A model generated the notes under the pieces. That model saw only the letters and a program-made list of their open reading frames with translations, ran no database searches and was not told where the DNA came from. The translations under genes and the position numbers were made by a program. A DNA stretch of 64,000 nucleotides from Albugo candida (lineage: Eukaryota): contig JBDOQK010000040.1 of the NCBI GenBank assembly GCA_040437565.1, positions 62,001 to 126,000 on the forward strand, read 5' to 3'. Below, in pieces: positions 25,275-30,361 of this stretch (within the stretch, counting starts at the first letter, position 1; each line of letters opens with the position of its first letter).

Positions 25275-25723
25275 TCAATTAATTAATTAATTGAATGTTT
25301 CGNNNNNNNNNNNNNNNNNNNNNNNNNNNNNNNNNNNNNNNNNNNNNNNNNNNNNNNNNNNNNNNNNNNNNNNNNNNNNNNNNNNNNNNNNNNNNNNNNN
25401 NNATCTTATCGTTTGTGTTAAACCATAACAATGCTCACAGTCATGCCTCCCAATTCAACGAATTGACATATGCTACACCCAAAGACAGCGACTCCTCATC
25501 GCACGACACAATTCAATTATGATACAACCCAAATGCGATGAGTTGATACTCGCCACCCTCCTCATCATTACATACATGAATCATATCATCAGCCACCCAC
25601 ATCAATTCATTGAATTGTACTTTTTCTCCATATTCAACGAATTGTCACTCTCCCATCCTCTAGCACCTTATACCCCAAATCATATCAATTCTCTCAGTTT
25701 GTGTCCTTTCATTCACAAATTCC

Positions 25724-28136
25724 ATGAAATTCATTCCAGTTACCATTTCCATCTCATCTCTTTTTCTTCAAAAGTATGAATCCTCCATCTCTCATACACA
25801 TTCCATAGAATATTTAGACGCTATCCAAGACGCTCATCCAATCAATGTCTCTCACAGTTACCAATTGATCGCTCAGCTGCCACTTAAACAATTTGTATAT
25901 AAATACGATGCTGTACCTGGTCGTCGTCACATCGGCGTCGTCGGACCAGAAATCGTACATTTGATACCTGATGGTGTCCAAATCTTCCCGGAGCGTTCCA
26001 TTATAACCACAACGAAAGAAAAAATCTTCTTAAAGAATTTCCACGTTGTTGATAAAGAAAGTATTTTTATGCATAGCACCGCCGCGACGCAAGAGCTTAT
26101 ACAGCAAGTAGAGAAACTCGAGTCACTTTTGGATAAGTTGCAGCAAGAGCATGCTACCGATCAAATGCTTCGCTCAGCGATAACAGAGCATCTTGGCCGA
26201 GAAACCAGTGCGCAACTGGTCGAGAAGCGAAAGATTGCTGAAGCCAAAGTGATGCAACAGGAAATGAGTATACAAGCGATCAGCTTGCAATCTGAAAAAG
26301 AAAAAGAAGCAATTCACCTCAAGTTGAAGATGGATGAACGCTTAGAACAGGTCAAGTCGCAAGAAGCAAAGCAAAGACTACAGGATCAAAACATTTTTCA
26401 TAACAAACAAAATGAGCATTTAGTCGCATTACAGGAAGCATCTCATTCTCGTTTAGAAAGTAAACGAGAAGAAATCGAACGAAAATGGAGAAGAGAAGCA
26501 CACGACATTGAGCTTGAAAAAGCTCGAATGGAACGGAATACCTCACTGGAAAAAGCGAAAATCGATGTGGATGGACGAATTCGGCAACAGCGAGTTAATC
26601 AAGACATTGAAATGATGCAATTGCAACAACGACTCGAAGCAGATCGCATGAAAATGTTACAAGCGCTAGACGCGATTTTCGATCATTTTGGAAGAGGCGC
26701 TTCGGCACTTCTCACCGATGAGAGAAAATGGTCGCAATTAATCGGTGGATTCGTCGCAATTGCCGCGGGAATTTATTTGAGTCGCGAAGGCGTTCGTATC
26801 GCTGGCACGATTTTGGAGAAACGACTTGGAAAGCCTTCCCTTATTCGGGAAACGTCTCGATCAAGTGGCATTTGGGGACGTATGAGAACGATATTCCGCC
26901 GCAATGTCGACGACAATATGCAACTAACGGATGTGGTTCTCAACCCAAATTTAGAAACGCGCATTCTTGAAATCGCACGCTCCACCAAAAATGCCATCCG
27001 ACATCGCGCTCCCTACCGCCATCTCCTCCTGTATGGTCCTCCAGGAACCGGAAAGACAATGGTCGCAAAGCAACTTGCAAAGTGTTCTGGTTTGGAGTAC
27101 GCGATACTTAGTGGTGGCGATGTCGGTCCATTAGGTTCCGAAGGCGTGACCGAGCTACATGCGCTCTTCCGTTGGGCAAATGCATCTCCTCGAGGCGTTC
27201 TCATTTTCATTGACGAAGCAGAAGCCTTTTTAGGATGCAGAGCAACACGAAAGACACACATGAGCGAGGCGATGCGGAATGCGCTTAATGCCCTTTTATT
27301 CCACACGGGAACCCAATCACGACATTTTATGCTCGTGATTGCGACCAATCGGCCAGAGGATTTAGACTCTGCGGTGACCNNNNNNNNNNNNNNNNNNNNN
27401 NNNNNNNNNNNNNNNNNNNNNNNNNNNNNNNNNNNNNNNNNNNNNNNNNNNNNNNNNNNNNNNNNNNNNNNNNNNNNNNACCGGAAAGACAATGGTCGCA
27501 AAGCAACTTGCAAAGTGTTCTGGTTTGGAGTACGCGATACTTAGTGGTGGCGATGTCGGTCCATTAGGTTCCGAAGGCGTGACCGAGCTACATGCGCTCT
27601 TCCGTTGGGCAAATGCATCTCCTCGAGGCGTTCTCATTTTCATTGACGAAGCAGAAGCCTTTTTAGGATGCAGAGCAACACGAAAGACACACATGAGCGA
27701 GGCGATGCGGAATGCGCTTAATGCCCTTTTATTCCACACGGGAACCCAATCACGACATTTTATGCTCGTGATTGCGACCAATCGGCCAGAGGATTTAGAC
27801 TCTGCGGTGACCAATCGGATCGACGACACGCTTCACTTTGAGCTTCCCGAATTAAGTGAGCGTGTCCGGTTATTGGAAATGTATTACAAAGAGTACGTCG
27901 GTCATTTGTCTGACGCACATTTGTTACTTCCACAAGTAAAGCAATTTGGGAATTGTATTGACGGAATGAGTGGCCGCGAAATCGCGAAAATGATGTTATA
28001 CCTTCAAAGTGTTGTTTATGCGCAGGAAACCATACAAATGAATCGTGATCTTTTATCGCGAGTGATTGCGGAAAAACGCGATGAGCATGTGCGCAAATCA
28101 AATCTCTGCAATTATAATAAGAAAAAGAAGCGGTGA
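25724..28136 (+). CDS. ATAD3: ATAD3-like AAA+ ATPase with an N-terminal S74/ICA-like domain; split by an N gap with duplicated overlap (~659 aa once collapsed)
   Basis: Coiled coil, TM segment, RLGKPSLIRETSR (ATAD3 signature), Walker A GPPGTGKT, SGGDVGPLG, Walker B IFIDEAEAFL, ATNRPEDLD and GMSGREIAK. Confidence 0.9.
27047..27812. other. Assembly artefact: 333-bp exact duplication across an N gap
   Basis: 27047-27379 is identical to 27480-27812 on either side of 100 N. Confidence 0.9.
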
Positions 28137-28323: not shown

Positions 28324-29388
28324 ATGAGTGTGAAGGTGCGTTTTACCGTCGCGTGAAGAGGTTCATATGCCACTTTCTGTGTTTGGAACTGATGTGAATT
28401 GGTATTTCTGATATAGAATTTGTTGTTGCGTGGATTTGGGACACATGTGGATATTGATATTGCTCTAGAGTGTGAAGAAAGTGCGACGGAAGGAGCAAGT
28501 CCGCTGTACCGTTTGGATTCAACTAGAGAATTACCGGTAATATTGCAACGAATAAATGGAGTGGTACACTTAACAATACCGGAAGGAAAGAAATTGGAGC
28601 ATAATGGAATCAAAATATATCTGTTGGGGCATATCGAGACTCCTTCCGATCGGCAGAATTCTGTTATGGAGATATTGAACTTGGAACAAGAGCTTGAAGC
28701 GGCTTCGACGCTGACAGTAACAAATGGTACCGATACCCAGTACCGATTCTCGTTTCACCCAATCACAACAGAAGTATATGAAAGTTATTCCGGTAACCTC
28801 TTTCGAATTCGGTATTTTCTACGGGCGATGATAAATCGTACTTACGCGGCTAACATCAGTAAGGAACAAGATATAGCAGTACAGTTGATTGGAAAGCCTC
28901 CGGAAACCAATAACCTTATACAATTAGAAGTCGGCATTGAAAACTGCCTCCATCTCGAACTTCATTGTTCGAAATCAAAGTACGTCAACGATGAAACCTT
29001 TTTCACAACATTACCCTTGTAATTTGATGATTCTAGATATCATCTTCAAGATTGTGTCATCGGAACGGTCCATTTCCTTCTCGTACGAATCAAGTTCAAA
29101 CGGATGGAATTGGCTATTGTACGTAGGGAAACAATCGTTCATACTGGGGATAAACAGGTCGAAAGCCAGACGGTTGCAAACTTTGAGCTCATGGACGGAC
29201 CACCGATGAAAGGAGATCGTATACCTGTGAGACTCTATCTCCATCCCTGCAATCTGAGTCCAACGTACCAATCACTGCTCTCCAAATTCTCCGTTCAGTA
29301 TTTCCTTAATCTGATTCTGATCGATCAAGAAGGCCGAAAATACTTTAAACAACAGGAGATGTTTTTATGGAGGTCAAAATACGGGTAG
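28324..29388 (+). CDS. VPS26: Vacuolar protein sorting 26 (retromer subunit), two introns
   Basis: MSVK|gt..ag|NLLLRGFG. Motifs GKKLEHNGIKI, YESYSG, LEVGIENCLHLE, FELMDGPPMKGDRIPVRLYL and GRKYFKQQEM. Confidence 0.92.
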
Positions 29389-29443: not shown

Positions 29444-30361
29444 TTAGGAGACTGATCGTGATTTCGATCTCGATGGAGATACAGAACGCTTTCGATCGCG
29501 TGACCGAGAACGGGTTCTGGATAACGACCGATGTCGTCGACGACGACTTTGTCTTCTTATCTTGGAGCGTGATCGAGAGGCTGAGGGAGAATATCGTCTT
29601 CTCCGGCGGTCCCGACGATCAGATCGAGATGGTGAGCGAGACGTAGAGCGAGAGCGAGATCGAGAAGCTGATCTTGAACGAGATGTTGGTCGTTCACGCT
29701 CTTGACGGATTTTGATCCGCTCACCATTCAATTTTGCATCACGAAGTTTTCGTATCGCACGTTCCATTTCTTGCTGATTTGTGAATGACGCAACGCCATT
29801 ACCACGTCGATCCACGTCTGCATGCACAACCACTCCTCCAATACGGAGAAAATCCTTCAAATCCTGCCAGCTAACGGATCGGGGAATGTGAGAAAGCTCC
29901 ACTCGAAACTGAGTTCCATGATGTCTATAAAATCGCTATGAATAAAATATAATCTACAGCTTATAGCATACTATACCGTCCACCAAACTTTTCGTCGCGA
30001 CTTTCTTTAGGTCCGTTCCTCGATATTTCCACGCGTATCTGAGCGCCGTGTAGTTCCTTCCTTGATTGTAGAAGTGTATATCAGCGAGAGCGTGTCGTAT
30101 CATGCTTCGTACATACCCATGCATCTCTTGTACAGCATCTTCAGCATCGCGTAAATCTTCATATTCCTGCAAAATGTGTCATCGTAGCTCTAGCCAAGTG
30201 AAACAATTGAATTTGCTTTCACATACAATAAACGCAAATGGAGGCGGTCGACGCGGGAACTTTAATATGACATTAACGATTTTCCCAAACTCACCAAAGG
30301 TTTTCTCCAATTCCGGCTCAGAAATCGCTTCTGGTAGATTTCCAACAAATATCTTTGGCAT
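29444..30361 (-). CDS. SR splicing factor, SRSF1/ASF-SF2-like (two RRMs plus RS domain; multi-exon)
   Basis: KIFVGNLP (RNP2), PPPFAFI (RNP1), pseudo-RRM SWQDLKD and an RS-rich tail. Confidence 0.92.

Follow-up and report, generated by a model that had tools for sequence, protein, structure and literature searches.

What does an intramolecular chaperone (ICA) domain do at the N-terminus of a membrane ATPase? The question is raised by a gene of the white-rust oomycete Albugo candida, located at 25724-28136 on the + strand of the window, by which we mean the whole stretch of 64,000 nucleotides that was analysed (positions 62,001 to 126,000 of contig JBDOQK010000040.1, assembly GCA_040437565.1). 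Its product belongs to the ATAD3 family of AAA+ ATPases. ATAD3 is essential in animals, plants and Plasmodium, and debate persists on how its N-terminal part oligomerises and gets to the outer membrane. An earlier note on this DNA had claimed that the protein begins with an ICA domain of the MYRF/Peptidase_S74 type, apparently lacking the Ser-Lys dyad responsible for self-cleavage. Our analysis leads us to favour, with appreciable doubt, the view that this domain is a trimerisation head which no longer cleaves and runs on into the ATAD3 coiled coil, and that it belongs to a fusion shared by stramenopiles, with catalysis lost on the way to Albugo.

An ICA domain ahead of the ATAD3 coiled coil

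The peptide quoted in the earlier note is indeed encoded in the open reading frame that opens with the ATG at 25724, as residues 29-146 (25808-26161, + strand). When residues 1-150 were compared with all PDB sequences using phmmer, the crystal structure of the MYRF ICA domain (7dc3) was matched over residues 40-141 with an E-value of 1.7e-5; 7dc3 aside, nothing in the PDB fell below an E-value of 1. The same residues searched against 1.84 billion representative sequences matched 130 proteins with E-values of 0.001 or less, including 42 at 1e-10 or less. A profile (A1) made from 40 of these short N-terminal relatives recovered 7dc3 with an E-value of 7.3e-20 and the L-shaped tail fibre of phage T5 (8hqz) with 3.7e-8, the next PDB entry being at 0.12. 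Chance similarity to ICA domains, which we also considered, is ruled out by the E-values obtained for 7dc3 in both searches and for 8hqz.

The AlphaFold2 model of the domain, calculated with A1, reached a confidence (pLDDT) of 90.8. In a Foldseek search of the PDB with this model, ranks 1 to 10 were all ICA domains (7dc3, 3gw6 and 3gud) and the next E-value was 0.45. The predicted fold resembled 7dc3 with an E-value of 1.5e-7 and TM-scores of 0.64-0.69, and 3gw6 and 3gud with E-values of 0.002-0.009. In the printed alignments G71, P82, N105, A121 and L125 are invariant or nearly so and match conserved positions of MYRF. In sequence as in predicted fold, residues 29-146 are a homologue of the ICA domains found in MYRF and in the tail fibres and tailspikes of phages, and the nature of the domain suggested in the earlier note is thereby confirmed. 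In the comparison with Pfam profiles that the note had proposed, residues 1-150 of Albugo score 21.9 bits against MYRF_ICA (PF13887, at 108-140) and 18.3 bits against Peptidase_S74 (PF13884, at 38-73), under the respective gathering cut-offs of 24.1 and 22. The assignment is secure because of the 7dc3 and 8hqz matches, the model and the Foldseek result, even though the Pfam cut-offs would skip the Albugo protein.

The remainder of the protein has the succession that characterises ATAD3, i.e. an ATAD3_N region and then an AAA+ module bearing the Walker A and Walker B motifs, so that the N-terminal position of the ICA domain on an ATAD3-family ATPase is also upheld. ATAD3_N is matched by residues 156-375 with 121 bits (Pfam cut-off 25) and AAA with 78.6-85.7 bits (cut-off 21.2). 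The first part of the AAA+ module (residues 434-552, 27023-27379; Pfam AAA E-value 7.4e-22) contains GPPGTGKT as Walker A and IDEAE as Walker B. The remaining part and the C-terminal helices are encoded with the stop codon at 27813-28136 (residues 553-659), as judged from the reading frame, the model and the orthologue of Albugo laibachii (P0004). Residues 339-357 (26738-26794) show the highest 19-residue hydropathy of the protein (1.37) and lie at the end of the ATAD3_N match; we presume that they form the ATAD3 membrane span, called here by a simple hydropathy scale rather than by a dedicated predictor. The full-length AlphaFold model, based on a 61-sequence alignment (A2), has a mean pLDDT of 82.5. 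It predicts one helix from residue 111 to residue 329 (26054-26710), then a helix at 333-368 that includes the hydrophobic segment, then the AAA+ fold. This single helix makes the ICA stalk continuous with the ATAD3_N coiled coil. The gene product is the A. candida orthologue of ATAD3, composed in this order of an N-terminal segment, the ICA domain, the ATAD3_N coiled coil, the membrane span and the AAA+ module.

The N-terminal segment (residues 1-28, 25724-25807) is short, weakly hydrophobic and modelled with low confidence, the pLDDT of residues 1-25 being below 50 in the full-length model. Its best 12-residue Kyte-Doolittle mean is 1.95 (residues 4-15), and that of A. laibachii is 0.96. In the relatives, the median length ahead of the ICA domain is 33 residues, and the segment is clearly hydrophobic (12-residue hydropathy of at least 2.0) in 89 of 109. 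Between the two Albugo species, identity amounts to 79% in the ICA domain, 83% in the AAA module and 59% in the coiled coil, as compared to 46% in residues 1-28.

Within the ICA domain, residues N41-V42-S43 (25844-25852) form an N-x-S/T motif that is kept in most relatives, an Asp taking the place of the Asn in some of them and in MYRF. A second N-x-T is found in many oomycete orthologues, some 20 residues nearer the N-terminus. Together with the signal-like N-termini, the motif could reflect glycosylation or a helix cap; the cap is the simpler reading, since MYRF and some relatives have Asp and since helix 42-50 starts directly after N41.

Catalytic positions and distribution of the fusion

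Self-cleaving ICA domains carry the motif S-D-x-R-x-K, to which residues 29-34 of the Albugo protein (EYLDAI, 25808-25825) are aligned. Both pairwise and profile alignments to 7dc3 place E29 and I34 at the Ser and Lys positions, respectively. The absence of the dyad, and its replacement by E and I, had been proposed from an ungapped alignment and hold in the profile alignment and in the column counts. The 7dc3 chain itself reads A-D-L-R-A-K where the earlier note gives S-D-L-R-A-K for MYRF, and its Ala is taken to be a crystallisation mutant. Among 133 proteins having both an ICA match and a Walker A motif, the Lys column is occupied by Tyr in 65, Leu in 30, Ile in 15, Phe in 9 and Lys in 6, with a gap in 8; these counts, taken from a local hidden Markov model (HMM) alignment, include near-identical strain copies and several Albugo entries and are not independent. 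The Ser column, which often falls outside the local alignments, holds no conserved residue where it is filled in rows without Lys. The Albugo domain should not be filed as a peptidase, because E29 and I34 replace the Ser-Lys dyad.

In order to define the range of the fusion, we used the full-length protein as a query and obtained 919 proteins with E-values of 1e-10 or less among 7999 scored candidates, the best 120 of which were listed. An ICA match was found with a local HMM in 106 of these best 120 relatives. The 14 others comprise five N-terminally short models or fragments (P0050, P0053, P0058, P0105, P0106), two Ginkgo proteins, and seven full-length proteins with other N-termini. Among the matches listed, the oomycete proteins without an ICA match are N-terminally shortened models (P0043, P0050, P0053). 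Carriers could be named from the roughly one quarter of proteins that bear taxon names: the oomycetes Albugo, Phytophthora, Pythium, Globisporangium, Plasmopara, Nothophytophthora, Saprolegnia, Aphanomyces, Achlya and Thraustotheca, the brown algae Ectocarpus, Scytosiphon, Hapterophycus and Ascophyllum, the diatom Thalassiosira, the bolidophytes Triparma and Bolidomonas, and Chrysoparadoxa and Chrysophaeum. As far as sequences can tell, ATAD3 proteins from oomycetes, brown algae, diatoms, bolidophytes and other ochrophytes have the ICA-ATAD3 fusion in common, the Lys being replaced in them by a hydrophobic or aromatic residue. The survey of stramenopile orthologues recommended in the earlier note indicates that the fusion is a stramenopile-wide trait and not an Albugo oddity, and that a labyrinthulomycete-type clade retains the dyad.

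The note had also regarded the architecture as undescribed. This holds for the literature searched, which yielded no paper linking ATAD3 with an ICA or S74 domain (a 2023 review of ATAD3 across eukaryotes was not covered), but automatic annotation does flag the domain on some orthologues. Precomputed Pfam assignments place PF13884 or PF13887 on several of them, and the UniRef name of the Triparma retinervis orthologue is 'Peptidase S74 domain-containing protein'. Running Pfam at an E-value of 0.01 or less on 61 chosen orthologues detected Peptidase_S74 in 25 and MYRF_ICA in 22; 36 of the 61 had no PF13884 match at this threshold. Pfam cut-offs miss the ICA domain in most orthologues, which matters for the annotation of this family.

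A dyad-less ICA-like module is not confined to ATAD3, as it also opens several proteins that do not belong to this family (P0202/P0261, of 850 residues, P0133, P0140 and P0152). The C-terminal Peptidase_S74 domain of P0202 has SDRRLK, and P0133 has an SDSRLK start close to its C-terminal end.

A quick maximum-likelihood tree was calculated from the C-terminal part of the proteins, starting 260 residues ahead of Walker A. It contained 33 rows, 7 of the 40 rows chosen having been dropped for want of a match to the Walker A pattern. The Albugo-type protein groups as a member of the ATAD3 family, and the ICA-bearing rows form one clade (SH-aLRT support 96), apart from Ginkgo and two ICA-less proteins. 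The tree thus fits one fusion event, without fixing the order of events.

The rows that keep the dyad form a long-branched group nested in the ICA clade (support 82). Three of these proteins (P0218, P0221 and P0222; 886-979 residues) combine ATAD3_N and AAA with a Peptidase_S74 match of about 42 bits (cut-off 22) that starts at position 1 of the profile; SDERLK or SDVRLK stands about 20-45 residues from their start, after a hydrophobic segment. A protein of the thraustochytrid Hondaea fermentalgiana (P0276), found with P0221, is 82% identical to it in the domain and has SDERLK. When the Hondaea-type domain was used to search the ESM Atlas, the clusters obtained were all generic ones of the 'chaperone of endosialidase' kind (0.90-0.91). 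We also observed P0277, from a record named Durusdinium trenchii, which is 56% identical to P0221 in the domain and reads CDKRLK, with Cys at the Ser position. It groups with the thraustochytrid-type clade and is either a genuine dinoflagellate gene or a foreign sequence in the assembly.

Trimer model, rival explanations and gene structure

The trimer model proposed in the earlier note was calculated with three copies of residues 25-150. The interface score (ipSAE) was 0.81 (0.81-0.82 over three runs), while the best of 3 controls gave 0.00; contacts agreed between runs to at least 88% and the partner pLDDT was at least 78. A score of 0.81 is reached by 21 of 30 proteins solved as same-chain pairs and by none of 23 solved as single chains. 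For eukaryotes, the corresponding figures are 17 of 29 and, for single chains, 0 of 30; of the 7 eukaryotic proteins lacking an older solved relative, only 1 reaches it. The predicted interface consists of residues 111-147, with heptad spacing, and of the strand residues 52-73. Passages of the MYRF study (PMC3742443) state that trimerisation of MYRF is driven by its ICA domain, that homo-oligomers still form in the catalytic mutant K583A, and that the ICA domains of phages are trimers on their own. From the trimer model, and by analogy with K583A, we infer that the Albugo domain would act as a non-cleaving trimerisation module.

Such a trimer would nucleate a three-stranded coiled coil and set its register, since the stalk helix enters the ATAD3 coiled coil unbroken. 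Hexamer formation and a location in the mitochondrial inner membrane are assumed for Albugo ATAD3 by analogy with animal and Plasmodium ATAD3 (PMC13249166); the simplest guess is that each AAA+ hexamer would be served by two ICA trimers. The hydrophobic N-terminal segment seen in most relatives may fix the head to a second membrane, or it may be a sorting signal. As to its origin, a cleaving S74-type domain would have been fused to ATAD3 a single time, no later than the stramenopile ancestor. Catalysis would then have disappeared on the way to Albugo, the domain being kept as a non-cleaving trimerisation head.

Several points weigh against this account. The Albugo sequence itself misses the gathering scores of both Pfam families. 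Trimerisation is a prediction of the model, and the resemblance to solved ICA trimers may account for the high score: as 7dc3 and 3gw6 are solved trimeric structures, the prediction may be a matter of memory. Moreover the job was run with three copies, unlike its calibration, and without our alignment. The symmetries of a three-fold head and a six-fold AAA+ ring do not match, and the location, topology and oligomeric state of stramenopile ATAD3 are assumptions extrapolated from other organisms. Known ICA domains lie C-terminal to their passenger and here only about 28 residues precede the domain, so that the known role does not transfer directly. The Albugo gene model of this region is a reading of DNA sequence. 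Finally, the dyad-keeping clade includes a protein whose record bears the name of a dinoflagellate, and the placement of this clade is weak (support 82, branch length 1.0), so that the dyad may have been lost once or several times.

A bolder version of the same account, which we hold only tentatively, is that a captured phage-type ICA domain still cuts in labyrinthulomycete-type lineages and has become a permanent three-fold, membrane-bridging hub in oomycetes and ochrophytes. In the former, the cut would shed the N-terminal hydrophobic anchor from the ATPase, in the manner of a MYRF-like proteolytic switch at an organelle membrane. In the latter, the uncut hub would clamp the coiled coils and link the ATPase of the inner membrane with the N-terminal anchor; the two membranes would thereby be bridged permanently, by two trimers on one hexamer. 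If true, ATAD3 would join MYRF as the second cellular use of an ICA domain in eukaryotes, and no AAA+ machine would have carried one before.

The dyad-less domain might alternatively have been kept as a docking or recognition surface for the outer membrane, the endoplasmic reticulum (ER) or partners carrying the same module, and not as a homotrimeriser. Module-module recognition of this kind finds some support in the non-ATAD3 protein P0202, which has the dyad-less module at residues 43-131 together with a canonical Peptidase_S74 domain at 672-733 (69.8 bits), and in the non-ATAD3 protein P0133, which ends in an SDSRLK-type start. Parts of a Plasmodium ATAD3 paper of 2026 (PMC13249166) moreover describe the N-terminal part of human ATAD3A as reaching the outer membrane and the cytoplasm and contacting other organelles. 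However, the residues conserved with MYRF (G71, P82, N105, A121 and L125) are those of the trimer core and stalk; the three-copy model is confident, and no partner is known. We regard docking as an unlikely explanation.

Self-cleavage through residues other than the canonical Ser and Lys appears very unlikely. The ICA fold is intact in the model, and the Cys that replaces Ser in the CDKRLK record of the dyad clade implies some freedom in the choice of nucleophile. But the nucleophile column has no conserved Ser, Thr or Cys, 119 of the 125 ATAD3 proteins with a residue at the position of the base show Tyr, Leu, Ile or Phe, and E29 and I34 are both unsuited to catalysis. The passages of PMC3742443 referred to above state that MYRF is no longer processed once its catalytic residues are mutated.

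The coding sequence of the gene, in one exon, consists of 25724-27379 and 27813-28136 and yields 659 residues and a stop codon, as supported by the list of open reading frames, the sequence, a database protein of 659 residues (P0003) and contigs that bridge the interruption. The first 552 codons extend from the ATG at 25724 to 27379, and an in-frame stop codon lies 21 codons upstream of this ATG. P0003, whose cluster contains records named Albugo candida, is identical to the window in residues 1-150 and differs at 2 of the 552 window-encoded residues. The A. laibachii orthologue P0004 also has 659 residues, has the same start and aligns without a gap. The earlier note had spoken of one uninterrupted reading frame. 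This is correct for the stretch encoding residues 29-146, but after residue 552, inside the part coding for the AAA+ module, the frame is broken in this assembly by 100 N (27380-27479), after which 27047-27379 is repeated exactly at 27480-27812. Since contigs of three public runs (X1, X2 and X6) read through, joining 27379 directly to the sequence at 27813, we consider 27380-27812 to be an assembly artefact; it lies outside the coordinates of the ICA domain.

These X1, X2 and X6 contigs are 3.6-6.3 kb long, have depths of about 115-135 and cover the stretch 25404-27380; they look like DNA rather than RNA. A fourth run, X4, contributed two small pieces (25954-26161 and 26875-27199) at a depth of about 4. 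The window differs from the X1, X2 and X6 contigs by single bases at 25537 (G>A) and 25770 (A>G), probably a strain difference; the latter would turn codon 16 from Gln into Arg. The promoter and 5' region are incomplete in the window, owing to another run of 100 N at 25303-25402 that ends 321 bases upstream of the start codon.

That the N-terminal region is absent from the working protein, through a misplaced start, splicing or removal with a targeting sequence, is the least probable of the explanations: in its favour are this run of N 321 bases upstream of the ATG, the poor modelling of residues 1-25 and the lack of an RNA run on record for 25404-27380, but the ICA domain is 79% identical between two Albugo species and modelled with a pLDDT above 90, it heads ATAD3 in 106 of the best 120 relatives, both parts occur on one product in two orthologues (the Bolidomonas record P0078, and P0244, 'Transcript_19002') that we judge by name to come from transcriptomes, and an in-frame stop codon precedes the start.

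Downstream of the gene, the open reading frames at 28420-29022 and 29104-29388 recur inside a public A. candida model of 1228 residues (P0263), which has the same start as the ATAD3 gene and continues into these frames. In other records of the same cluster, the downstream frames contained in P0263 are separate proteins of 191, 94 and 199 residues. By joining them to ATAD3, P0263 looks like a chimeric gene model. Further on, a minus-strand frame at 29444-29902 encodes 152 residues with a long Arg-Ser-rich tail, presumably resembling an SR-type RNA-binding protein.

Comparison with known ICA and ATAD3 proteins

Each of the two parts, ICA domain and ATAD3, is familiar by itself; their combination, with catalysis lost, places a known domain in an undescribed context. 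It brings a structurally understood trimerisation domain to the N-terminal end of ATAD3 across a branch of a eukaryotic supergroup, and offers a natural experiment on how three-fold and six-fold parts fit in one machine. It also extends the eukaryotic uses of ICA domains beyond the MYRF transcription factors and indicates that such a domain can be retained over long evolutionary times after its catalysis is lost.

The ICA domain of MYRF (animals and Dictyostelium; 7dc3) is the best match of the Albugo domain in both sequence and fold. Both begin with a short helix, continue with a beta hairpin core and close, at the C-terminus, with a long stalk helix. In the available parts of PMC3742443, MYRF is described as cleaving itself at S-D-x-R-x-K, thereby freeing an N-terminal transcription factor, and as having an ER membrane span after the domain. 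In contrast, the Albugo protein has E and I in place of the dyad and no N-terminal passenger, and its ICA domain is followed by a coiled coil and an AAA+ ATPase.

Phage ICA domains (K1F endosialidase, 3gw6; GA-1 neck appendage, 3gud; T5 tail fibre, 8hqz) are likewise matched by the Albugo profile or fold. They are C-terminal, fold a trimeric fibre and then cut themselves off, whereas the Albugo domain is N-terminal and devoid of the dyad. An ICA domain is expected C-terminal to the trimeric passenger that it folds and releases; what precedes it in Albugo is a segment of 28 residues.

With the ATAD3 proteins of animals, plants and Plasmodium, the Albugo protein shares the ATAD3_N coiled coil, the hydrophobic span and the AAA+ module with its Walker A and B motifs. 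The portions of PMC13249166 that describe these proteins give human ATAD3A a proline-rich motif and two N-terminal coiled coils, and PfATAD3 no such motif; the architectures set out there include an ICA domain in neither of them. This agrees with the earlier statement that animal ATAD3 lacks the domain. Outside the clade, two Ginkgo ATAD3 proteins and seven other full-length relatives likewise gave no ICA match by local HMM.

The closest counterparts are the dyad-keeping ATAD3 proteins (P0276, P0218, P0221 and P0222), which share with Albugo the overall architecture and the clade in the tree. They differ from it by an SDERLK or SDVRLK motif directly after a signal-like N-terminus, by a Pfam score that passes the cut-off (about 42 bits), and by a greater length (886-1006 residues) with a longer coiled coil. 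The pair formed by a putatively cleaving type, as in Hondaea, and a putatively non-cleaving type, as in oomycetes and diatoms, makes the role of self-cleavage directly testable.

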